Positions 12,052 through 27,591 are shown, counted from the first letter of the stretch. The stretch is 64,000 bases of DNA from an uncultured Pseudomonadota bacterium (GCA_963749075.1 CAVVLJ010000017.1:544001-608000), one strand, 5' to 3'. A program made the numbers and translations. Notes: generated from the letters alone by a model not told the origin.

Positions 12052-13050
12052 TCAGCGGCTCATGCTGAAGCCCTGCAGGATCTTGATATAATTTGCCCGC
12101 TCGAAGGAGGCCGGGTGCGCCACCGTGCGCTGGCTCATGCGCCCGCGTATGGGATCGAGCGTCTCGAGGTTGCGCGCCGCGAGCCAGCTCTCGAGACCGT
12201 CGCGCAATACCTTCATATGGGCGACGCCGTGCCGCAGGAGGGCGGAGGTGGTCATCACGACGTCGGCGCCGGCGAGGAGGTACTTGACGACCTCGTCGAC
12301 GCTCTCCACGCCGGTGCTCGCCGCGAGCGACGCCTTGAGGCGTCCCGCCAGCACGCCGATCCAGAGCAGCGGCAGGCGGATCTCGGAAGACGTGCTCAAT
12401 TCGAGGTCCGAGCGCAGCTCGAGCCGCGCGAGGTCGATGTCGGGCTGATAGAACCTGTTGAACAGGACCAGGCCGTCGGCGCCGGCTTGATCGAGCTCGA
12501 GCGCCATGTGGCCGATCGCGCTGAAATAGGGCCCGAGCTTGACCGCGACCGGGATCGCGACGGCGCGCTTCACGGCGCCCAGGATGTCCTTGTAGCGGCG
12601 CTCGACCTCGCGTCCGCTCATGTCGAGATTGGCCGGAATGAAGTAGACGTTGAGCTCGAGCGCGCTCGCGCCTGCCTCCTCGATCTGCCGGGCATAATCG
12701 ACCCAGCCGTGATCGGTGACGCCGTTGAGGCTGGCAATGACCGGCATGTCGACCGCCTTGGCGGCGCGGTGCACGAGCTCGAGGTACGGTCCCGGACCGT
12801 TCGGGTACGAGACGGCCGCCGGGAAATAGCTCAGCGCCTCCGGGAAACTGTCCGTCCCCGTCGTGACCAGGCGCTCGAGCAGTTCCGCCTCGCGCTCGAT
12901 CTGCTCCTCGAAGATCGAGGGCAGCACGACGGCGCCGGCGCCGAGCTCCTCCAGACGCCGGATGTTGTCCAGCTCGCCGGTGAGCGGCCCGGCGCTGGCC
13001 ACGAGCGGGCTCTTGAGCCTGAGGCCGAGATAACGCGTCGTCAGATCCAT
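12052..13050 (-). CDS. Dihydroorotate dehydrogenase-like flavoprotein
   Basis: YLGLRLKSPLVASAGP, GAVVLPSIFEEQI, LFNRFYQPDID, LLAGADVV. Confidence 0.88.
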   Translation of the reverse strand: MDLTTRYLGLRLKSPLVASAGPLTGELDNIRRLEELGAGAVVLPSIFEEQIEREAELLERLVTTGTDSFPEALSYFPAAVSYPNGPGPYLELVHRAAKAVDMPVIASLNGVTDHGWVDYARQIEEAGASALELNVYFIPANLDMSGREVERRYKDILGAVKRAVAIPVAVKLGPYFSAIGHMALELDQAGADGLVLFNRFYQPDIDLARLELRSDLELSTSSEIRLPLLWIGVLAGRLKASLAASTGVESVDEVVKYLLAGADVVMTTSALLRHGVAHMKVLRDGLESWLAARNLETLDPIRGRMSQRTVAHPASFERANYIKILQGFSMSR

Positions 13051-13087
13051 GGCTGCGATCCTCTTCTGCTTCCTTGCGCCGCCGCCT

Positions 13088-16681
<3,594 letters not shown>

Positions 16682-16810
16682 CTCGGTTCTTCCCCTCCGG
16701 CTCGGGCATCATCTCGATGGCGTGGCGTGGACACCGCTCGGTCGGGCCGCTTCCCGGCGCGCCGTCCGTGCCGTGCGGCAGTATGAGACCATGTCGCCCG
16801 CCTGTGCACT

Positions 16811-17026: not shown

Positions 17027-17133
17027 GACGGCTCGCCCTGGAGCGCTTCATCTTGCATGGTCGGGCGATCGAGCATGGGCGGCGGGCCGTTCACCCGCCC
17101 CCTTCCGGGTGCCGGCGCGAGGGAGAGACGACA

Positions 17134-18264
17134 TTGGGCGGCAGGATCGAGAAGAGAGAGGCGCCGAGCGATCTTTTCGAGCCGGTGCGGCTGGGGCCGT
17201 ATCAACTTGCGAACCGCGTCGTCATGGCGCCGTTGACGCGCAGCCGCGCCGGCGAAGACGGCGTCCCACGGCCCTTGATGGCCGAATATTACGCCCAGCG
17301 CGCCTCGGCCGGGCTGATCGTCACGGAGGGCGTCAACATCTCGCCGCAGGGGAGAGGCTACGCCCTGACGCCGGGCCTCTATGACGACGCCCAGATCGAG
17401 GGATGGCGGCAGGTGACCGCGGCCGTCCATACCCGCGGCGGCCGCATCTTTCCGCAGCTCTGGCATGTCGGGCGCGTGTCGCATCCTTCGCTGCAGCCCG
17501 GCGGCGCCCTGCCCGTCGCCCCTTCGGCGATCCGCCCGGAGGCCACGTCCTATACCGCGGCCGGTTTCCAGCCCTGCGCGACGCCCCGCGCGCTCGCCAC
17601 GGCCGAAATCCCCGAGATCGTCGGGCAGTACCGCCGCGCGGCGCGAAACGCCCTCGCCGCCGGCTTCGACGGCGTGGAGATCCATGCGGCCAACGGCTAT
17701 CTCATCGAGCAGTTCCTGCGCGACAGCACGAACAAGCGGACCGACAGCTATGGCGGGCCGCCCGAGAACCGCGCGCGCCTCCTGCTCGAGGTGACGGAGG
17801 CCGTGGCCGGCGTCTGGGGCGGCGCGCGCGTCGGCGTCCGCCTTTCGCCGCTCAGCCCGGTCAATGGCGCCGCCCTCGACAGCGACCCCGCCGGGACCTA
17901 CAGCCATGTCGTCGAGTGGCTGAACGCGTTCGGGCTGGCCTACATCCACATCATCGAGGGAGCGACCCAGGGGCCGCGCGAGGTCCCGGGCGGCTTCGAT
18001 CTTCAGATTCTACGGCGATCGTTCAAGGCTCTCTATATCGCAAACAACGGCTACGACTTGGGGCTCGCCCACGAGGCGCGCCGCCGCAACCTCGCGGACC
18101 TCATCTCGTTCGGCCGGCTCTACATCGCCAACCCGGACCTCGTGGAGCGCTTGCGCACCGGCGCGCCGTTGAACGTTCCCGACCGCGCGAGCTACTTCGG
18201 CGGCGGTGCGGCCGGATACACCGACTATCCGGTCCTGACGCCGGCGGAACGCGACGCCGCCTAG
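17134..18264 (+). CDS. Old yellow enzyme / NemA-like alkene reductase (TTG start inferred)
   Basis: NRVVMAPLTRSRA, QLWHVGRVSH, GFDGVEIHAANGYLIEQFL, GRLYIANPDLVER, GYTDYP. Confidence 0.93.
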   Translation: MGGRIEKREAPSDLFEPVRLGPYQLANRVVMAPLTRSRAGEDGVPRPLMAEYYAQRASAGLIVTEGVNISPQGRGYALTPGLYDDAQIEGWRQVTAAVHTRGGRIFPQLWHVGRVSHPSLQPGGALPVAPSAIRPEATSYTAAGFQPCATPRALATAEIPEIVGQYRRAARNALAAGFDGVEIHAANGYLIEQFLRDSTNKRTDSYGGPPENRARLLLEVTEAVAGVWGGARVGVRLSPLSPVNGAALDSDPAGTYSHVVEWLNAFGLAYIHIIEGATQGPREVPGGFDLQILRRSFKALYIANNGYDLGLAHEARRRNLADLISFGRLYIANPDLVERLRTGAPLNVPDRASYFGGGAAGYTDYPVLTPAERDAA

Positions 18265-18357
18265 CGCCGGCCGCTGCACGCCTCGTTGCCTCAGGGGCCG
18301 CTCGGCGATGAGAGGGCGTGCGGAGCGCGCAGACTTTCGCTAGAGGCAGGCCTTTGA

Positions 18358-20034
18358 TCAGGGCCGCGGCTCAGGCGCCCGGTCTGCAAGGGCGGCCGGC
18401 GGCAACGCGGCGGTTGGATTTCCCGCGCTTTCCCCGGAGCGATTGCCGCCGCGCCGCCAGCCGTCGATGGCCGCGAGCTCGGCTTGCGGCACTTCCGCGA
18501 TAATCTCCAGCCGGCCGAGCATGACCTCGCCGGTCTCGCCGTCGAGAGAAATCCAGCTTCCCTCCTCGATTTTCCTTCCGGCAATCTCGCCGCCGGATCC
18601 GCTCTCGCCGATTTTCAGATCGCGGCACCCGACCAGACAGACCTTGCCGAGCTGGCGTGCCACGACCGCGGCATGGGCGGTCCGCCCTCCGACCGCGGTC
18701 AAGATGCCGGCAGCCGCCGCGAAACCGCCCACATCATCGGTCGAGGTGTCGTGGCGCACGAGAATGACCGGTTCGTTCCCGGCCGCGAGCGCCTTGGCGC
18801 GGATGCTGTCGAAGGCGACGCGCCCGGTGGCGACGCCGGGAGACGCCGAGAGGGCGGTGGCGACCGCCGGAACCTTGTTGGCGAAGCGGGTCAAGCGGGT
18901 TCCCGCAAGGTCGATCTCGGCTGCGCGCGACAGCGCCGTCGCGCGATCGAGGAGGCCTTCATCGACGAAATCCACCAGAACGCGCAAGGCCGCCCGCGGC
19001 GTCCGTTTGGCCGAACGCGCCTGCAGGAAGAACAGCCTGCCGTTCTCCACCGTGAACTCGACGTCCTGGACGTCGCGGAATTCGCGCTCGAGGCGGGCGA
19101 CGCCCTCGGCGAGCTCCTTTGCCACCTGCGGAAGCCGGGCGGCAAGCAGATCACCGTTGCCCGGCATGCGCCGGCCGGCCACCACGTCCTCGCCTTGCGC
19201 ATCGACGAGAAAATCGACATAGAGCTCTTTCGCGCCGGTTGCCGGATTCCGCGAGAATGCGACGCCGGCACCGGACTTCCCGCCCGAGTTGCCGAAGACC
19301 ATGGCCTGAACGGTGACGGCGGTGCCGATGAGCCCGTCGAGCTTATTGAGACGACGGTACTCCTTGGCCCGCGGGTTGTCCCAGGAGCGATAAACGGCGC
19401 GCGCCGCGGCCTTGAGCTGCTCGATCGGGCTATCGGGAATCGCCCGGCCCGCCGCCTCGGCTGCCGCGGCACGAAACTCATGCGTCAGCCGCTCGAGCGC
19501 TTCCGAATCGAGATCGCCGTCGCTTTCAGCACCCTCCGATCGCATCATCTCCGCAGTGCGCGCCTCGAAGAGCGCCGACGCGGCGCCTTCGACGGTCTCG
19601 CAATAGTTCTGGATGAAGCGCCGATAGCTGTCCCAGGCGAGGCGGGGGTTGCCGGTCAGGCCGATCAAGCCGCGGACGCTCTCGGCATTGAGGCCCACAT
19701 CGAGAATCGTGTCCAGCATCCCGGGCATGGATTTTGCCGCACCCGAGCGCACCGAGACGAGGAGGGGCGCGCGGTCGCCGCCGAAACGGCGGGCGGTCGT
19801 CTCTTCCAAGCGGGCGATGCCGTCGCGCAGCCCTTGGTCGAGCGCCTCGAGGGCCTGTGCATCGCCCCGGTTGGCCGGCGCGCAGAGCTCGGTCGGCAAG
19901 ACGAAGGCAGGCGGCACGTTCAAGCCGAGCCTTTTCATTTGCCAGAGGCTGGCCGCCTTCGACCCGGCCAGCGCCGCCGTGATTTCGTCGCTTCGCCCAG
20001 CGGTGCCTATGTAAAGCGGCGCATAGCGGTTCAT
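18358..20034 (-). CDS. PPDK-like protein: nucleotide-binding + phospho-His swivel domains, no C-terminal PEP/pyruvate barrel
   Basis: LLVSVRSGAAKSMPGMLDT, QAMVFGN, AQGEDVVAG, QDVEFTVE, GGRTAHAAVVARQ; ends shortly after ISLDGETGEV (558 aa). Confidence 0.88.
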   Translation of the reverse strand: MNRYAPLYIGTAGRSDEITAALAGSKAASLWQMKRLGLNVPPAFVLPTELCAPANRGDAQALEALDQGLRDGIARLEETTARRFGGDRAPLLVSVRSGAAKSMPGMLDTILDVGLNAESVRGLIGLTGNPRLAWDSYRRFIQNYCETVEGAASALFEARTAEMMRSEGAESDGDLDSEALERLTHEFRAAAAEAAGRAIPDSPIEQLKAAARAVYRSWDNPRAKEYRRLNKLDGLIGTAVTVQAMVFGNSGGKSGAGVAFSRNPATGAKELYVDFLVDAQGEDVVAGRRMPGNGDLLAARLPQVAKELAEGVARLEREFRDVQDVEFTVENGRLFFLQARSAKRTPRAALRVLVDFVDEGLLDRATALSRAAEIDLAGTRLTRFANKVPAVATALSASPGVATGRVAFDSIRAKALAAGNEPVILVRHDTSTDDVGGFAAAAGILTAVGGRTAHAAVVARQLGKVCLVGCRDLKIGESGSGGEIAGRKIEEGSWISLDGETGEVMLGRLEIIAEVPQAELAAIDGWRRGGNRSGESAGNPTAALPPAALADRAPEPRP

Positions 20035-21968
20035 GCCGACAACTCCTCGAGGACACGGTCTCTGAGAGCGAGAGCCGAATGAGACAGGTGATCGGTCGCG
20101 GTCTCGAGTACGCGCGCGATCTCAAGGGCGAGCACCAGCGGCCTCGCGTCGCCGCGAGGCACGGCCATGAGTGCCGCAAAGGCATCGCGCTCGGCCGTGT
20201 CGGCGCTGCGCTCCAGGTTCACCACCGCATCGAAGGCTTGCAGCGAGGCGACCGCATCGGCGCGCTGGCCCCTCGGCAGCCGCGATGCCGCCTCGACGGC
20301 GCGGACAAGCTCGCTCACGCTCTCGGTCACGATCTCGGAGAGCTCTGCCAGCGGCGCAACGGCGAGCACCGATGCGTCCTCTTCGGGCACGAGGCTCAGA
20401 AGGAAGGTGCAATCCTCCAACGAATCGGTCGTATTTTCGACCTCGTCGATCACCGGCCGCAGCATCCCGGCTTCGCGGATGCGGGCCGCCATTTCGCGCG
20501 CGGAGACGGTCTGACGATCCGCCTTCTCTTCGATTTTCTTGGCCCGGCGGGCGAGCGCGCGCCTCTCTGCCGGCGTCACGGAGGAAGGCGCCGAGAGAGC
20601 ATCGGAGATCGCCGCGGCGAGAATCCGCGTGAGCCCGAGATGGCGGACGAGCACCGTGAGGACGGAGCTTTCGGCCGTCTCGAACCGGCGCGACAGATCG
20701 GCCTGGATCTCGTCGCGAATGAGCCGCGCGGTGCGCCCGGCGGAGAGCCCCTGGCTGGTGTCGCGCAGAACCCGCTCGAGGAATTCCCTGCATGCGGTGG
20801 CACCCAGCGCCTCGTCGAGCCGCACGCCATAGGGAATGCGCCCCGCCGCGGCACGCTGCACCGCGTCGAAGATCAGATCGGCGCCGCCAAGATCGAGAAA
20901 GGCCCGGTGTCCGAGATCGCGTGCGGCGGCCCACTTGAGCAGATCGACCGCGGCGTTCTTGCCGACGAACGTCTGGAGCGCCTTTCGCGCCTTGTTCCAG
21001 TCGATCAAAAAGACGATGCGCGACCCGAGAAACTCGAGGAAGCGCTCGACCGCACCATCGCCATCGGAGACGTAACGCCCCGTCAAAAGGTAGAAGACAT
21101 CCTCGTCGAGCCCGGCCGCCGATTTCTCGGCAAGAGGGCTCCAGCCAACGCCCTGGCCTTCGAAGAGCGCTATGAAGAATTTGGCGCGCGGCCGGTGGGT
21201 GTCGGTGTAGGTGACGGTCACCGCCTGATCCTCGACATGGACGACCAGCACATGGGCATCCGTGGTCCCGATGTCGTTCTGGATCGTCAGTCGTCCGCCG
21301 GCCCGGACCGCCGTCGTGCCGAGCCCGGGGTGACCGAAGGCCAGAGGTGCCGTGCGGTTGAGCCCCCGCATGAACGCCTTCACCCGTACGCGGTCGCGCT
21401 CGTCGATGCGATGCACGCGCGCCCCATCGAGAGTTTCGAGCGCCGTATCCGCGGCGAGCCGGTTGAGCGCCTTGTGGATATCCATGACGAGGCCGTGAAC
21501 GCTGTCCCGGCCGGCGCGGCCGGCTGACGTGAGGTCATCGATGTCGCGGAAATCGAGCTGATCGCGCTCGCCCGCGGGAAGGCATCTTGTCAATGCCTCC
21601 GCCCTCGCGACGAGGGATCGGCTGGCTTCGCCGTCGGCCGCCTCCAGGGGGGCCAGCATGAGCGAGAGATCGGCCGCGGCACCAGCGAGCAATTCGCTGG
21701 CGCCCGGAATGAACAAGCGCGTCGGGCCGAGTGCCCTGGCACCGGAGACCAGCGAGTCGAGCCCCGGCGCATCGAGACGGGCGGCCTGCCGCTCCGCGCG
21801 GAAGAGACGCGGCTTGCGGTTGGGGTCTTGCGCTTGCAACGCGGCTTCTTGCAGAAGACTGAGGCGGAGCTTGATGCGGTCGTTGGCGGCAAGCGCATCC
21901 CCGATGAGCGAAGGCAGCAGAACGGCCTTCTCCCCTAAACGCTCCATCACTTTGGCTTTGGTTGTCAT
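20031..21968 (-). CDS. Large protein with C-terminal DUF47/PhoU-like helical domain (putative phosphate transport regulator)
   Basis: C-terminal IEEKAD / LERSAD / LETATD repeats typical of DUF47; central QNDIGTTDAHVLVVHV; stop overlaps start of PPDK-like gene. Confidence 0.7.
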   Translation of the reverse strand: MTTKAKVMERLGEKAVLLPSLIGDALAANDRIKLRLSLLQEAALQAQDPNRKPRLFRAERQAARLDAPGLDSLVSGARALGPTRLFIPGASELLAGAAADLSLMLAPLEAADGEASRSLVARAEALTRCLPAGERDQLDFRDIDDLTSAGRAGRDSVHGLVMDIHKALNRLAADTALETLDGARVHRIDERDRVRVKAFMRGLNRTAPLAFGHPGLGTTAVRAGGRLTIQNDIGTTDAHVLVVHVEDQAVTVTYTDTHRPRAKFFIALFEGQGVGWSPLAEKSAAGLDEDVFYLLTGRYVSDGDGAVERFLEFLGSRIVFLIDWNKARKALQTFVGKNAAVDLLKWAAARDLGHRAFLDLGGADLIFDAVQRAAAGRIPYGVRLDEALGATACREFLERVLRDTSQGLSAGRTARLIRDEIQADLSRRFETAESSVLTVLVRHLGLTRILAAAISDALSAPSSVTPAERRALARRAKKIEEKADRQTVSAREMAARIREAGMLRPVIDEVENTTDSLEDCTFLLSLVPEEDASVLAVAPLAELSEIVTESVSELVRAVEAASRLPRGQRADAVASLQAFDAVVNLERSADTAERDAFAALMAVPRGDARPLVLALEIARVLETATDHLSHSALALRDRVLEELSA

Positions 21969-22284
21969 GACCACCCTCGCCCGCCCGCCGCCCCATGGCC
22001 GACGCGCCATTAGGGCAAGAAATCGCCGCGCATGCCTTGCGCTAGATCATTCATGGAAGTGTCATGACCCTATTGCGTTACAGTGGCAGCCCCGGCTTTT
22101 GCCCCGTGAGGCTGAAAGGATCGGGCGGGGCGCCGGTGGAAATTCACCAGGCGAAAAGGCCGCCCGCTCGGCGGAGAAAACTCGCCTGCGGCAACGTCAT
22201 GCCGGCAACGCCACGCCGATGGCCGACGGACTGCCGCCCTGCGGGCGAGCCACTCGCTTTTACGCGTAGCCGGCAGTAATCGCT

Positions 22285-22413
22285 TCAAGGCTTGGTCTCG
22301 CCGCGCAAACGTCGGACGTGGTCCTCGAGCTGCCGACGCGCCGCGCCGAGGGCGTCGCGTATCGCGACATGAACGTCCTCATGGGCGTGGCGATCCCGGT
22401 GCAGGTCTATGCG
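22285..22413 (-). pseudogene. Relic of HPF/RaiA-family ribosome-associated protein gene
   Basis: RIDL-HRDRHAHEDVHVAIRDALGAARRQLEDHVRRLRGETKP* resembles the HPF C-terminal helix; no own start or N-terminus. Confidence 0.6.
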
Positions 22414-22712
22414 TGGCTTCCGGACGGCTCGATCCAGCCGCCGCACAGCTCGGGATTGCTCCGGCAATGCTCGATGAAATGGCGGAGGACAAGCTTCAAC
22501 TGCGCCGCGTGACGAAAATCGCGGCGGCCGCGCGCCGCTTCGATATCGTCGCGGATGATCGCCTTGATCGCCTGCTGGCCGCCCGGGCAATGGACGAGGT
22601 AACAGCCGAGCGAGGCCGCAATCACCTCCGGGCGATGCTCGTGCTCGGCGATGGCATCGATCTCTTCCCGGGTGAGATCGCTCAAAGCGATGCAGTCCTC
22701 GAGCGTCAACAT
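22407..22712 (-). CDS. Conserved hypothetical protein
   Basis: GGAG RBS; MLTLEDCIALSDLTREEIDAIAEHEH... coding-like; downstream of an FNR-like box. Confidence 0.75.
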   Translation of the reverse strand: MLTLEDCIALSDLTREEIDAIAEHEHRPEVIAASLGCYLVHCPGGQQAIKAIIRDDIEAARGRRDFRHAAQLKLVLRHFIEHCRSNPELCGGWIEPSGSHA

Positions 22713-22774
22713 CGACATCTCCAACGAAAGAGCCTGCCTCGATGGTAGGATCGCAGGCATCTCGCCCGAGTGCC

Positions 22775-22788
22775 TTGACATAGATCAG
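22775..22788. promoter_or_regulatory. FNR/FixK-like box between divergent genes
   Basis: TTGAC-ATAG-ATCAG. Confidence 0.6.
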
Positions 22789-22881
22789 CTGGCGAGCTGA
22801 GTTTACCCGCCAAGCTTGCGAAGCCGCATCGCCGAGTTGGCTTTCTTTGCGCTCCGCATGCGGGCCTGGCGGAGGCGGGCG

Positions 22882-24012
22882 ATGACCGACAAGAACCCGG
22901 CCGAGCGCTATCGCGCCAACCTGCAAGGCGAAATCGACAGCGCCTCGCTCTACCGCGCCCTGGCCGAGGTCGAGGGCGACCCGCAGATCGCCAAGGTCTA
23001 CGGCCGGCTCGCCGCGGTCGAGGAGGCCCACGCCTCCTTCTGGCAGAAGCGCCTCGAGGCGCTCGGCAAGCGGCTTCCCCGGCTGCGTCCCGGCTTCCGC
23101 CCCAAGGCGCTGGCGTGGCTCGCGCGGCGCTTCGGGCCGGGCTTCATTCTGCCGGCGATCAACACGCTCGAGCGCATGGACAGCGGCCATTACGACGCCC
23201 AGCCCGAAGCCGTGGCGGGCGGGCTGCCGCAGGCCGAGCGCAGCCACGCGCGCATCCTCCAGGCGATTGCCGGCGACGCCCCGGGGGCGATCACGGGGAG
23301 CACGCTGGCGCGGCTCGAGGGCCGCCACCGCGGGCTCGGCGGGAACGCGCTGCGCGCCGCCGTGCTCGGCGCCAACGACGGGCTCCTCTCCAACCTGAGC
23401 CTGGTCATGGGGGTCTCGGGCGCGGCGCTCGACCGCCATGCGGTTCTCATCACCGGGCTTGCGGGGCTCCTGGCCGGCGCCTGCTCGATGGCGCTCGGCG
23501 AGTGGCTCTCGGTGACGAGCTCGCGCGAATCCTATCAGCGCCAGATCGGCAAGGAGGCCTCCGAGCTCGCCGAGGTGCCCGACGAGGAGAAGGAGGAGCT
23601 CATCCTCATCTACCAGTCGAAAGGGCTCGGCGAGACCGAGGCGCGTGCCTTGGCCGAGCGGCTCATGGCCGACAAGTCGACGGCGCTCGACACGCTGGTG
23701 CGCGAGGAGCTCGGCATCGACCCGTCCGAGCTCGGCGGCTCGGCCTGGACGGCGGGCGCCACGTCGTTCCTCCTCTTCGCCACGGGTGCCGTCTTCCCCG
23801 TGGTGCCCTTCTTCTTCGCCGGAGGAGAGCGCGCGGTGGCAGCGAGCCTGGCGCTCTCCGGCCTCGCCCTCTTCGCGATCGGCGGCGGCACCAGCCTCTT
23901 CACCGGCCGCGGCGTGCTCCTCTCCGGCGTGCGTCAGCTGCTCGTCGGCCTGGCCGCGGCCGGCGTCACCTACGGCCTCGGCCGGCTCATCGGCGCGGCG
24001 CTCGGGGGATGA
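22882..24012 (+). CDS. Rubrerythrin/ferritin-like domain + VIT1/CCC1 transporter
   Basis: E..HA di-iron-like motifs (EEAHA, ERSHA); LRAAVLGANDGLLSNLSLVMGV, GACSMALGEWLSV. Confidence 0.9.
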   Translation: MTDKNPAERYRANLQGEIDSASLYRALAEVEGDPQIAKVYGRLAAVEEAHASFWQKRLEALGKRLPRLRPGFRPKALAWLARRFGPGFILPAINTLERMDSGHYDAQPEAVAGGLPQAERSHARILQAIAGDAPGAITGSTLARLEGRHRGLGGNALRAAVLGANDGLLSNLSLVMGVSGAALDRHAVLITGLAGLLAGACSMALGEWLSVTSSRESYQRQIGKEASELAEVPDEEKEELILIYQSKGLGETEARALAERLMADKSTALDTLVREELGIDPSELGGSAWTAGATSFLLFATGAVFPVVPFFFAGGERAVAASLALSGLALFAIGGGTSLFTGRGVLLSGVRQLLVGLAAAGVTYGLGRLIGAALGG

Positions 24013-24187: not shown

Positions 24188-24880
24188 CTAATCCGGCGCG
24201 CGCAAGCGGTAGCCGACGCCCGTCTCGGTCAGGAGGTACTGCGGCCGCGCCGGCTCGCGCTCGAGCTTGTGGCGCAGGCTGCGCACATAGACGCGCAAAT
24301 ATTGCACGTCCTCCACGTGCGCCGGCCCCCACACCTCGCGCAGGATGAACTCGTGGGTGAGCACGCGCCCGGCCTGGGTCACGAGCAGGCGCAGGAGATC
24401 GAATTCCTTGGCGGAGAGCCTGACCTCCTCGCCCTCGAGCATCACGTGGCGGCGCACGAGGTCGACGGTGAGCGCGCCGCACTTGTAGACCGGGGGCGCG
24501 CCCTGCTCCTGGAAGCGCCGCCGGAGCGCCGTGCGCAGGCGCGCGTTGAGCTCCTCCATGCCGAAGGGCTTGGTGATGTAATCGTCGGCGCCGAGATCGA
24601 GCGCCTGCACCTTGCCGCGCTCGTCGCCGCGCGCGGAGAGCACCAGGATGGGCATCGCGGAGAGCCGGCGGATGCGCTGGATGACCTCGAGGCCCTCCAT
24701 GTCGGGCAGACCGAGATCGAGGATGACGAGGTCGGGCTTTTGCAGCACCACCGCGTCGACCGCGTCGCCGCCGGTTTCCGCGACGCTGACCTCGTATCCC
24801 TCGGCCTTGAGCCCGGCATCGAGGAAGCGGCGGATCGCCTTCTCGTCGTCGACCACGAGGATGCGGTGGGCCTTGCTCAT
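24188..24880 (-). CDS. kdpE: Response regulator KdpE
   Basis: ILVVDDE, DLGLPD, GADDYITKPF, YLRVYVRSLRHKLE..PARPQYLLTETGVGYRL; follows kdpD. Confidence 0.93.
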   Translation of the reverse strand: MSKAHRILVVDDEKAIRRFLDAGLKAEGYEVSVAETGGDAVDAVVLQKPDLVILDLGLPDMEGLEVIQRIRRLSAMPILVLSARGDERGKVQALDLGADDYITKPFGMEELNARLRTALRRRFQEQGAPPVYKCGALTVDLVRRHVMLEGEEVRLSAKEFDLLRLLVTQAGRVLTHEFILREVWGPAHVEDVQYLRVYVRSLRHKLEREPARPQYLLTETGVGYRLRAPD

Positions 24881-27591
24881 GCCGGTGCCGCCGCGTCGCG
24901 CGCTTCCGCCGGCTGCGGCGCCAGGGGGAGGGCGATGGTGAAGACCGCACCCGAGCGGTCGGCGCGGTTGGCGGCGCGCACCGTGCCGCCCGACGCCTCG
25001 ACGAAGCCGCGGCAGATGGCGAGGCCGAGCCCCGTTCCCGCCGGGCGGTGGTCGCCGTCTGTGACCCGGTAGAACTTGTCGAAGATGCGCTCGAGCTGGC
25101 CCTCCGGAATGCCGGGCCCCTCGTCGGCGACCTCGAGCCTGAGCGTCTCCTCGTCGCGGCGCGCCGAGACGCGGACGAGCGAGCCCGGCGGCGCGTATTT
25201 CGCCGCGTTGTCGAGGAGATTGAAGAGCGCCTGGTCGAGCAGCAGCGCATCGCCCGCCACCATCGGCAGATCGGGAGCGATCTCGACCTCGACGCGGTGG
25301 TGCTGGAGCAGCCGCCCCGCACGCCTCAAGGCGGTCTCGACCAGCTCGCCCGCCTCGAGCATCTCGCACTTCGGCTGAAGCGCGCCCAACTCGAGCCGCG
25401 TCACGTCGAGGAGATTGCCCACGAAACGGTTGAGGCGCTCGGCCTCGTCCTCGATCGTGGCGATGAGCTCCTCCTTGACGCGCGGCTCCGCCGCCTCCTT
25501 GAGCGTGCGCAAGGCGGTGACCGAGCCGATGATCGAGGCGAGCGGCGTGCGCAAATCGTGCGAGATCGAGGTGAGGAGCGTCGAGCGCAGGCGCTCCGCC
25601 TCGGCCGCCACGCGCGCCTCGTCGATGTCGCCTGCGAGCCGCACCCGCTCGATGGCCACGGCTATGAGATCGGAGAGCGCGTCGAGGAGGCGGCGCTCGT
25701 CGGGCGTGAGGATCGGCCCCGGACGGTCGCGGTCGAGGCCGAGCACGCCGATGATGCCGCGCCCGGTGCGCATGGGGAGAAAGAGGCGGCGGGCGCCCGG
25801 CAGCGTGTCCGAGGCGCGGCCGGCCGCCTGATTGTGCGACCAGGTCCATTTGGCGGCGGCGAGGTCGGCCTCGTCGAGCTCGTCCTCGGGCGGATAGCCG
25901 GCGCGCACGGCGATCTGGCCCTTCTCCGGGAGGAGGACCACGATGCGCAGCTTGAGGAGGGCTGCCACCTGGTAGCAGAAGGCCCACAAGAGGTCGTCGA
26001 GATTGCCCGTCGCCGCGAGCTTGCGGCTGAAGGCATAGAGCTCGGCGGTGTCCTTGGCGCGGCGCTGGGCGGTGAGGACCTGCTCGCGCGTGCGCGCCGT
26101 CAAGTTGCTCGTCAGCACGGCGACGATGCCGAAGAAGAGGAGCGCCATGACATTCGCCGGATCGGAGATCGTGAAGGTATAGAGCGGCGGCAGGAAGAAG
26201 AAATTATAGGCGAGCACGCTCAAGAGCACGGCGAAGAGCGAGGGCAGGAGGCCATAGGCGACCGCGGTGAAGAGGATGGCGGCGAGATAGACGAGCGAGA
26301 GGTTGGGCAGCCGCACGAAATGGTCGATGGCGAGGCCGATGAGCGTTGCGGCGGCCGTAGTGCCGGCGGCGACCAGATAGGGCAGCAGGTCGACCGGCTC
26401 GCCGGCGGCACGCGTGGTGACGTTCTTCGGCGGGATGGGCTGACCCTCGCCGGTCACCACCTCGACGCCGATGTTGTTGGCCTTGCGGATGAGCTCGCCC
26501 GGCACCGAGCCGCGCAGTATCTCGCTTACGCGCGAGCGCCGGGGTTTCCCCACGAGCACGCGCGTGACGTTGTTGGCCCGGGCGTAGGCGAGCACGTCGT
26601 CGGCGACGCTGCGGCCGGGGACGGTGAGCGCCTCGCCGCCCAGCCGCTCGGCCAGACGCAGCGTATCGGCGATGCGGTCGCGCTCGACCTCCGAGAGGCG
26701 GTGATGCCGCGAGGTCTCGATGTAGAGCACGCCCCACTTGGCCTTGAGCTGGTCGGCCACCCGCCGCGCCTGGCGCACCACTTGCGCGGACGCCGGGCTC
26801 TCGCTCACGCAGGCGAGCACGCGCTCGCCCGCGGCCCACGGGCCGCTGATGGCGTGCGCCTGCATGTAGCTCAGCATCTGCTCGTCGACGCGCTGGGCGG
26901 CGCGCCGCAAGGCGAGCTCGCGGAGTGCCGTGAGGTTGCCCGGCGAGAAGTAATGCTTGAGGGCGCGCTGCGCCTGGTGGGGGACGTAGACCTTGCCCTC
27001 CTTCAGGCGCTGCGTGAGGTCCTCCGGCGTGAGATCGACGACCTCGATCTCGCCGGCCTGGTCGATCACGCTGTCCGGAATGGTCTCGCGCACGCGGATG
27101 CGCGTGATCTGCGCCACCACGTCGTTCAGGCTCTCGAGGTGCTGGATGTTGAGCGTCGAATAGACGTCGATGCCGGCGGCGAGCAGCTCGGCCACGTCCA
27201 TGTGGCGCTTGGGATGGCGCGAGCCGGGAGCGTTCGAATGGGCGAGCTCGTCGACCAGCACGAGCTGGGGCGAGCGCTTGAGCACGGCGTCGAGATCCAT
27301 CTCCTCGAGGATATGGCCGCGGTACTCGACACGGCGGCGCGGGATGATCTCGAGCCCGCGCAAGAGGCGCTCCGTCTCGACGCGGCCGTGGGTCTCGACC
27401 ACGCCGACGACCGCGTCGACCCCCTCGCGCCGGCGCTGCGCCGCGGCGAGCAGCATCTCGTAGGTCTTGCCGACGCCGGGTGCGGCGCCGAGGAAGATCT
27501 TGAGCTTGCCGCGCCGCTCCTCCTTCGCGGCCGCGAGCAGGGCTTCCGGCGACGGGCGATGGTGGTACTCGCTCCCGTTCGGCTGGACCAT
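24877..27591 (-). CDS. kdpD: Sensor histidine kinase KdpD
   Basis: GKLKIFLGAAPGVGKTYEML, LVDELAHSN, Usp domain, 4 TMs, GAF, SHDLRTPL, GTGLGLAIC. Confidence 0.97.
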   Translation of the reverse strand: MVQPNGSEYHHRPSPEALLAAAKEERRGKLKIFLGAAPGVGKTYEMLLAAAQRRREGVDAVVGVVETHGRVETERLLRGLEIIPRRRVEYRGHILEEMDLDAVLKRSPQLVLVDELAHSNAPGSRHPKRHMDVAELLAAGIDVYSTLNIQHLESLNDVVAQITRIRVRETIPDSVIDQAGEIEVVDLTPEDLTQRLKEGKVYVPHQAQRALKHYFSPGNLTALRELALRRAAQRVDEQMLSYMQAHAISGPWAAGERVLACVSESPASAQVVRQARRVADQLKAKWGVLYIETSRHHRLSEVERDRIADTLRLAERLGGEALTVPGRSVADDVLAYARANNVTRVLVGKPRRSRVSEILRGSVPGELIRKANNIGVEVVTGEGQPIPPKNVTTRAAGEPVDLLPYLVAAGTTAAATLIGLAIDHFVRLPNLSLVYLAAILFTAVAYGLLPSLFAVLLSVLAYNFFFLPPLYTFTISDPANVMALLFFGIVAVLTSNLTARTREQVLTAQRRAKDTAELYAFSRKLAATGNLDDLLWAFCYQVAALLKLRIVVLLPEKGQIAVRAGYPPEDELDEADLAAAKWTWSHNQAAGRASDTLPGARRLFLPMRTGRGIIGVLGLDRDRPGPILTPDERRLLDALSDLIAVAIERVRLAGDIDEARVAAEAERLRSTLLTSISHDLRTPLASIIGSVTALRTLKEAAEPRVKEELIATIEDEAERLNRFVGNLLDVTRLELGALQPKCEMLEAGELVETALRRAGRLLQHHRVEVEIAPDLPMVAGDALLLDQALFNLLDNAAKYAPPGSLVRVSARRDEETLRLEVADEGPGIPEGQLERIFDKFYRVTDGDHRPAGTGLGLAICRGFVEASGGTVRAANRADRSGAVFTIALPLAPQPAEARDAAAPA

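Follow-up and report, generated by a model that had tools for sequence, protein, structure and literature searches.

A barrel-less pyruvate, phosphate dikinase and a PhoU-tailed partner form a conserved two-gene unit with a possible role in phosphate homeostasis

What does a pyruvate, phosphate dikinase (PPDK) do when it ends before the barrel in which pyruvate is bound, and does the gene that precedes it supply a substitute? The question is raised by a 64,000-nucleotide stretch of DNA from an uncultured Pseudomonadota bacterium (GCA_963749075.1 CAVVLJ010000017.1:544001-608000), here called the window. On its minus strand, a short PPDK paralogue of 558 aa is encoded at positions 18358..20034, directly behind a gene for a 645-aa protein at 20031..21968, which we call the partner. 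An earlier note on this DNA had proposed that the two genes form an undescribed phosphotransfer system in which the partner provides the phosphoryl acceptor or its binding site. Our preferred answer, which we hold with moderate confidence, is that the pair is a two-part phosphoryl-transfer machine, either a split dikinase or a phosphorelay, and that it serves phosphate or polyphosphate homeostasis rather than pyruvate metabolism.

The 558-aa product, in which the open reading frame (ORF) listing has LTAVGGRTAHAAVVARQLGK, is made up of a nucleotide-binding domain and a swivel domain that carries the catalytic histidine. Pfam reports PPDK_N (E 2.5e-39) and the phosphoenolpyruvate (PEP)-utilizers mobile domain (E 2.4e-21) in this protein, and no match to PEP-utilizers_C (PF02896), the family of the barrel that distinguishes canonical PPDK. 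The final ~28 residues are not conserved. Against the NCBIfam model for PPDK, TIGR01828, the protein scores 545 bits, which is below the curated cut-off of 843.45, and covers profile positions 13-516 of 865. The PEP synthase model TIGR01418 gives 72 bits, and by these scores the short PPDK is of PPDK type, not of PEP-synthase type. It narrowly misses NF004531/PRK05878, the model for short "PPDKs," with 449.9 bits against a cut-off of 456 over profile positions 20-464 of 534.

Comparison with solved structures indicates that the catalytic apparatus is intact. In an alignment the short PPDK is matched to residues 17-511 of the Clostridium symbiosum PPDK (E 5e-128), and K26, SVRSGA, SMPGM, DVEFT, LQxR, and T452/H454 correspond to the catalytic motifs of solved PPDKs. 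All 40 short forms compared keep these motifs and residues without change. The alignment to the C. symbiosum enzyme, together with the isolated central domain 2fm4, places the swivel (phospho-carrier) domain at approximately residues 381-510 (18505..18894, minus strand), and the PF00391 match falls at residues 420-502. Within this domain the histidine loop reads GGRT(452)AH(454)AAVVAR; the codons of T452-A453-H454 (18673..18681, minus strand) align to GGMTSHAAVVARG of the solved enzymes and are the counterparts of the regulatory threonine and the catalytic histidine. Immediately downstream, a convergent gene at 17053..18264 (plus strand) encodes an Oxidored_FMN protein of the old yellow enzyme type and no barrel. 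At the other end, the start codon of the short PPDK overlaps the stop codon of the partner (20031-20033) in the four bases ATGA (20031..20034, minus strand; tcg gcA TGA acc), an arrangement that we read as translational coupling of the two genes. The earlier description of this gene, with intact nucleotide-binding motifs and swivel domain, an end before the barrel, a convergent downstream neighbor that supplies no barrel, and a start codon overlapping the stop of the partner, is thus borne out by the ORF, Pfam, and NCBIfam results together.

The pairing is not peculiar to the window. Among loci from species genomes, 79 of 80 have the short PPDK directly downstream of the partner and on the same strand, and at the sole miss, L067, the sequence ends inside the partner gene. 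These loci belong mostly to Alphaproteobacteria (Tistlia, Zavarzinia, Acidocella, Reyranella, Methylocella, Rhodoblastus, and Xanthobacter), with one Burkholderiales metagenome-assembled genome (MAG). A second set comprises 80 divergent metagenome loci, whose identity to an archaeal-type member is 34-40%; in 12 of them the sequence stops no more than 260 nt from the partner, and each of the 68 with room for a further gene has the short PPDK directly downstream, two being fused in frame. Natural fusions, with the partner first, are P0179 (1200 aa), P0182 (1205 aa), P0181, L115, and L148, and one of the 1200-1205-aa fusions comes from a Solirubrobacteraceae MAG. Relatives of the partner are also named from Methanomethylovorans and from Halobacteria MAGs. 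Across 129 loci, the identity of each of the two proteins to its counterpart in the window rises and falls with that of the other (r = 0.97; 0.92 in the first set and 0.67 in the second), which shows co-inheritance rather than contact, since shared descent produces such co-variation. There is no third conserved gene: the largest cluster of neighbors is found at 12 of the 80 genome loci and 7 of the 80 metagenome loci. The pairing suggested from this one locus is therefore conserved on a check of co-occurrence; the two genes are shown to be one old, co-inherited, sometimes fused unit, and the module is ancient and widespread, being present in bacteria and archaea.

The short PPDK has a history of its own. 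All of its best 120 homologues, down to 63% identity, are 435-583 aa long, and their source names are "pyruvate, phosphate dikinase" or "PEP/pyruvate-binding domain-containing protein." The earlier note had raised the chance that the closest homologues would be full-length enzymes, as after a recent truncation. That objection fails on these lengths and on a rapidly built maximum-likelihood tree with 40 rows, in which a branch with a Shimodaira-Hasegawa-like approximate likelihood ratio test (SH-aLRT) value of 99 sets 34 short or fused forms apart from five canonical alphaproteobacterial PPDKs and one long-branch protein. Because the canonical sample is narrow, consisting of those five PPDKs, the tree leaves the place of the short clade in PPDK history unspecified. 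The short PPDK is 43% identical to the PPDK of its own genome and 42-52% identical to short forms from other phyla, and so by sequence appears no closer to the former than to the latter. In addition, five of five module-bearing genomes searched contain both a canonical PPDK (>1338 bits) and a short form (512-544 bits). These comparisons point to an old clade and argue against a recent truncation.

A third PPDK-like form was observed in the Methylocella silvestris genome G402 (contig C21; L179:679-3174, minus strand). This 831-aa protein has PPDK_N and a swivel domain and stands on a long branch of the tree. Neither a Pfam family nor a sequence in the PDB matches its extra C-terminal part of ~310 residues, and its C-terminal 312 residues were ruled out as a relative of the partner (hhalign probability 0.4).

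If the short PPDK lacks its own acceptor site, the protein encoded before it becomes the object of interest. From its first ATG, the partner ORF would span 20031..22010 and encode 659 aa. We prefer the start at 21968 (MTTKAKVMERL), which gives 645 aa, over the ATG at 22010, because homologues align from residue 1 (MxxKxxI...) and GAGGG lies 5 nt before this ATG. The protein carries the motifs LTIQNDIGTTDAHVLV and VTYTDTHRPR. Of the candidates that were scored, 4005 proteins belong to its family at E <= 0.001, and the family has 1111 representatives of 50%-identity clusters. An AlphaFold2 model built from a 76-sequence alignment has a predicted local distance difference test score (pLDDT) of 92.5, and the alignments and this model divide the protein into three parts.

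Residues 1-177 (21438..21968, minus strand) are predicted from the alignment and the AlphaFold secondary structure to form a conserved N-terminal helical bundle, in which R122 is invariant and K4, P19, N29, K33, Q40, D155, H158, D163, and H165 are nearly so; the structural matches of this part are to generic helical bundles only. Residues 178-420 (20709..21437, minus strand) are modeled as an alpha/beta sheet with a helical core, and this part reaches a pLDDT of 89.8 when residues 150-425 are folded alone. It holds most of the invariant residues of the partner (F199, G202, G215, H239, D256, R261, F264, W276, D323-W324-N325, and G353) and the motifs GHPGLGTT, QNDIGTTDAH, YTDxH, and DWNKARK. Residues of the front part stay invariant even among members that are just 27-38% identical, and the pattern of invariant histidine, aspartate, and arginine looks like that of an active or binding site.

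The first ~420 residues have no Pfam or NCBIfam family, and Foldseek searches with the whole model and with residues 150-425 returned nothing at E <= 0.001 except the PhoU-like tail, in agreement with the earlier impression of an unrecognized N-terminal and central region. In the ESM Atlas, residues 1-425 find a best score of 0.79 to an unnamed cluster. Three candidate homologues of the front part from VIA-align were set aside as sharing a common arrangement, namely 1tlj (TYW3-like, Z 8.0), the T4 MotA C-terminal domain (Z 7.9), and the ACT-like 9c7o (Z 4.6); a Z of ~8 is in the range usual for unmatched models.

The remainder of the partner, residues 421-645 (20034..20708, minus strand), is a helical tail of predicted PhoU/DUF47 fold. 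Its model superposes on 3l39 with a VIA-align Z of 24.0 and a root-mean-square deviation of 2.5 A over 203 of 209 residues, and on the PhoU structure 1t72 with a Z of 21.2; across PhoU/DUF47 structures the range is 19.7-24.0. The top Foldseek matches of the partner model are likewise PhoU-like, and a profile of the partner family finds 3l39 in the PDB (E 1.3e-8). In Pfam, PF01865 is not found in the window's own partner at E <= 0.05, whereas it is found at that threshold in 52 of 76 aligned homologues (best E 2.1e-11), and P0206, P0145, and P0182 exceed the 24.4-bit cut-off of the family. The DUF47/PhoU tail that had been suggested from the sequence thus stands on fold, profile, and homologues, and not on a Pfam match of the window's own protein. 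The tail shares its six-helix fold with PhoU and DUF47 proteins (PF01865, PF01895; 3l39, 2iiu, 1t72) and keeps the acidic motifs in corresponding helices (E480/D484, D515/E518, E586/D590, R594, and E622). Known members of these families are stand-alone proteins of ~210-240 aa encoded beside Pit or Pst transporters, whereas in this module the fold makes up the end of a 645-aa protein that is linked to a dikinase.

Since the PhoU-like tail suggested a link to phosphate, we searched around the module for Pho genes and for Pho boxes. At 13 of 160 loci, PstB, PhoU, or PhoB is encoded within ~7 kb, these identities having been checked with NCBIfam. Among the 136 nearest flanking ORFs of the alphaproteobacterial set we found four PstB, one PhoU, two PPK2, and a Mg-ATPase. 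The 119 nearest flanking ORFs of the distant set include a PhoU-domain protein, two PPK2, Ppx/GppA, PhoD, a CYTH-CHAD protein, a protein combining a metallophosphoesterase with Ppx domain III, and pairs of a metallophosphoesterase with a family 4 glycosyltransferase (GT4). Counted over the nearest neighbors of both sets together, there are four PstB, two PhoU, and four PPK2. The metallophosphoesterase and GT4 pairs are putatively, as we take them to be, similar to the PlcP/Agt lipid-renovation genes of phosphate-starved bacteria. This likeness leans partly on passages of PMC4796936 and PMC8231724. Overall, a Pho or polyphosphate gene is nearby at 20 of 160 loci, where chance, roughly estimated, would give ~1% or less per locus.

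The Pho box of Escherichia coli, as set out in a passage of PMC4415409, consists of two CTGTCAT units four bases apart. We scanned 250 nt upstream of the partner at 145 loci for CTGTCAT-N4-CTGTCAT, with 7250 dinucleotide shuffles as the control. Sites with <= 3 mismatches are present in 30 of the 145 upstream regions, compared to 76 of the 7250 shuffles (a 20-fold difference), and sites with <= 2 mismatches in 14 of 145, compared to 3 of 7250. Most of these 30 sites (23) are centered 51-114 nt upstream of the start codon. In the window, the consensus scan finds CATTCATGGAAGTGTCAT at 22048..22065 on the plus strand, opposite to the operon, with 3 mismatches and its center ~88 nt upstream of the ATG of the partner. 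As a positive control, a 3-mismatch site lies just upstream of all three Pho loci of the same genome, two pst operons and phoU-phoB (G000 C16:785118, C20:305091, and C21:88894), from which it seems that the genome encodes two Pst systems and that its PhoB site resembles the one of E. coli. Across all 5.5 Mb of the genome, just seven Pho-box-like sites have <= 2 mismatches.

The region is therefore phosphate-flavored in many lineages, and expression of the module is probably under PhoB control in many of them. The link to phosphate proposed earlier is indirectly supported by the PhoU fold, by the Pho-box-like sites, and by the pst, phoU, phoB, and polyphosphate neighbors, and we regard a connection to phosphate starvation and polyphosphate as credible.

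How might the two proteins work as one machine? In the mechanism that we propose, the short PPDK would bind ATP in its ATP-grasp domain and transfer the beta-phosphate onto its own His454. The gamma-phosphate would most likely go to orthophosphate (Pi), because the protein is of PPDK type and not of PEP-synthase type, and the products would be AMP and pyrophosphate (PPi). We infer this first step from the intact catalytic residues and from the chemistry of PPDK and of VadK, a relative described below. The swivel domain would then carry the phosphoryl group to the partner, whose residues 1-420 would occupy the place of the PEP/pyruvate barrel of PPDK. There the partner could offer an acceptor residue, for which the invariant H239 is a candidate, or a pocket for a small acceptor, probably of the inorganic-phosphate type; either a relay through a partner residue or transfer to a small phosphate species would fit this hand-over, which is a conjecture. 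In a third step, the PhoU-like tail may bind phosphate or a metal and so couple the reaction to the phosphate state of the cell, as its fold and context suggest. A complex prediction for the full partner with short PPDK residues 345-535 scored 0.00 against a mark of 0.32, and counts neither way.

Parts of this scheme have precedents. Canonical PPDK (EC 2.7.9.1; 1kbl, 5jvj) shares the ATP-site and histidine-loop motifs, with 43% identity in the case of the genome's own enzyme, but has the PEP/pyruvate TIM barrel, whereas the short form stands in a separate clade and always occurs with the gene for the partner. Phenylphosphate synthase, with its three subunits, is another enzyme divided among several proteins. 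The logic of an ATP-grasp domain, a mobile phospho-histidine, and an acceptor other than the barrel is also that of rifampin phosphotransferase (in part of PMC4844700) and glucan water dikinase (in part of PMC13553574), but the acceptor modules of these two enzymes and of phenylphosphate synthase are unrelated to the partner. The NCBIfam matches of the short PPDK to these families cover the swivel domain only.

The closest characterized relative of the short PPDK is VadK (Rv1127c) of Mycobacterium tuberculosis, which is also the only characterized barrel-less PPDK that we found in the literature. According to the sections of the VadK report at hand (PMC13400623, EMBO Rep 2026), it is a histidine autokinase that phosphorylates itself on His422 with ATP and Mg, binds enzymes that act in the methylcitrate cycle, and is more soluble when made together with its operonic neighbor, Rv1126c. 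VadK and the short PPDK thus have in common a nucleotide domain and a swivel histidine domain, the absence of the barrel, a conserved catalytic histidine, and a neighbor in the operon. They differ in that the short PPDK scores 449.9 bits on NF004531, below the cut-off of 456, and in that Rv1126c is downstream of VadK; moreover, VadK is encoded beside methylcitrate genes, whereas the module described here is in a phosphate and polyphosphate context. PhoU and DUF47 are never mentioned in the VadK paper (0 occurrences in PMC13400623). Our literature searches found no paper that describes a dikinase paired with a PhoU/DUF47 protein, and the main text of a study of phosphate limitation in Methylosinus (PMC9239053) does not mention dikinase, PhoU, or DUF47. 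The earlier word "undescribed" can therefore be kept for the pair but not for a barrel-less PPDK acting as a histidine autokinase, given the publication of VadK in 2026.

Several other explanations deserve weighing, and the genome itself speaks to the plainest of them, in which the short PPDK is half of a split ordinary PPDK whose barrel is encoded elsewhere, or else a dead remnant. In its favor, a 233-aa ORF with part of a barrel does exist on another contig (G000 contig C20:100546-101247; L090:1547-2248, minus strand). However, it matches PEP-utilizers_C at profile positions 105-291 only and scores 69 bits on the PPDK model, much like enzyme I at 75 bits; it looks like a truncated barrel of the enzyme I type. 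The fragment lies beside a LacI-type regulator, and a gene for a complete enzyme I is ~3 kb away. The genome also holds enzyme I, a GAF-enzyme I of the PtsP type, and, on a separate contig, a complete canonical PPDK of 896 aa, and no stand-alone barrel of the kind that the earlier note had thought might restore ordinary PPDK activity. A split or decayed enzyme is already contradicted by these findings and by the age and invariant catalytic residues of the short clade, and we give it hardly any credence. Almost as improbable is a mobile accessory or anti-phage defense cassette, an idea that the sparse occurrence of the module (2 genomes in a sample of 400 from the phylum), yet across bacteria and archaea, would suit. 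There is no PADLOC family match, the neighbors are housekeeping or phosphate genes rather than genes of defense or mobility, and a single IS1595 transposase is present among the 255 neighbor ORFs.

A more serious contender, although in our judgment an unlikely one, is a regulatory histidine kinase after the manner of VadK, in which the autophosphorylated short PPDK would bind and tune metabolic enzymes and the partner would be a stabilizing or regulatory subunit, not an acceptor. What is reported of VadK (PMC13400623, in the same sections), namely an autophosphorylating protein without a barrel that binds methylcitrate-cycle enzymes and gains solubility from its neighbor, provides the model; the near miss on NF004531 (449.9 bits, just below 456) is consistent with it, and no acceptor pocket is recognized in the partner. 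The partner, however, is far larger and far more conserved than would be required of a chaperone, and it carries invariant histidine, aspartate, and arginine residues; in several lineages it forms one fused protein with the kinase. Methylcitrate synthase and dehydratase genes are absent among the 255 nearest-neighbor ORFs of the pair, and no Mycobacterium-named protein appears among the best 120 short relatives of the PPDK half of the actinobacterial fusion, in a search limited to proteins of <= 661 aa. The partner could instead regulate the kinase in dependence on phosphate, in the style of the PPDK regulatory protein, acting on T452 or blocking the swivel domain, with the PhoU-like tail as its switch and the acceptor encoded elsewhere. 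PhoU-family proteins are regulators, to go by the names of the matched structures, and all 40 short forms compared have T452; this conservation is weak evidence, because T452 is also kept in PPDKs for structural reasons. Pfam and NCBIfam find no P-loop or DUF299-like family in the partner, and no further conserved gene could supply the acceptor, so that we think such a regulator improbable.

The preferred reading, a two-part phosphoryl-transfer machine of phosphate or polyphosphate homeostasis, has its own difficulties. The front part of the partner is without a family or a clear fold (best Z 8.0 and 7.9) and no acceptor is recognized in it; nothing here therefore identifies the acceptor. In the sections at hand, VadK was phosphorylated in vitro with no added orthophosphate reported (PMC13400623), and the Pi dependence assumed for the first step may accordingly not hold. 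As to the phosphate context, Pho and polyphosphate genes are missing from the vicinity of 140 of 160 loci, and the neighbor background is only a rough estimate. At 115 of 145 loci there is no Pho-box-like site with <= 3 mismatches to a consensus that is that of E. coli. Where such sites occur, 24 of 30 are on the strand opposite to the operon, and a divergent upstream ORF, by a crude ORF tiling, is present at 22 of the 30 loci with a box compared to 50 of the 115 without one. Because of the antisense sites, and because the divergent ORFs possibly own the boxes, PhoB control of the operon itself is not shown. The module is also rare, occurring in 2 of the 400 genomes sampled from the phylum, and its neighbors in the window (an old yellow enzyme-type oxidoreductase, a VIT1-ferritin fusion, and Kdp-like genes) are unrelated.

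Apart from the convergent oxidoreductase gene, the surroundings of the pair in the window are as follows. Just upstream and on the same strand lies a 124-aa ORF (22407-22781, minus strand), which matches no family in Pfam or PADLOC and is not kept beside the pair at other loci; a G+C-rich hairpin with a T run is found within it at 22521-22538. Divergent from the pair, the ORF at 22816-24012 (plus strand) encodes a rubrerythrin/ferritin-like N-terminal domain fused to a membrane domain of the vacuolar iron transporter family (VIT1). Farther on, 24188-27591 (minus strand) encodes a 904-aa sensor kinase with a KdpD-like start, followed by a response regulator of the OmpR family that is 36% identical to a PhoB query; from their sequences, these two are probably KdpDE. 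On the other side, a 1197-aa ORF at 13088-16681 (minus strand) has two ferredoxin-type cysteine clusters and a thiamine-diphosphate-like end and reads like a putative pyruvate:ferredoxin oxidoreductase; the longer antisense ORF over it (13049-16786, plus strand) is probably an artefact of high G+C content. A promoter and terminator scan of 18000-23000 yielded nothing useful. At other loci, a YdjM-family membrane protein is encoded upstream of the partner in six distant cases (L099, L101, L104, L110, L117, and L140), and an RNA 2',3'-cyclic phosphodiesterase directly upstream in four loci of the Acidocella type (L031, L034, L036, and L067).

In this module a PhoU-type domain is joined, by operon and at times by fusion, to half of an enzyme, whose chemistry interconverts ATP, AMP, Pi, and PPi by way of a phospho-histidine. 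New in the present analysis are the Pho-box-like sites and the Pho or polyphosphate neighbors at part of its loci. Internal phosphate sensing and the role of PhoU-type domains are open questions that the module touches. As a tentative extension, which we put forward as a speculation with the chances rather against it, the pair might represent a third device for histidine phosphotransfer beside two-component systems and the PEP-dependent phosphotransferase system, distributed over bacteria and archaea. In such a device, the charging of a PPDK-derived autokinase would depend on ATP, AMP, Pi, and PPi, and the autokinase would thereby read cytoplasmic phosphate and energy charge. It would pass the phosphoryl group to a 420-residue acceptor domain with a PhoU-like output, and this domain would signal to Pho/Pst or would make or consume PPi or polyphosphate through the chemistry of a dikinase. 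If the partner is indeed the acceptor, the module would offer a tractable, soluble two-protein system for Pi- or energy-dependent phosphotransfer and would give a function to a large family-less domain with 1111 cluster representatives. VadK would then take its place among a wider group of barrel-less PPDKs with dedicated partners.

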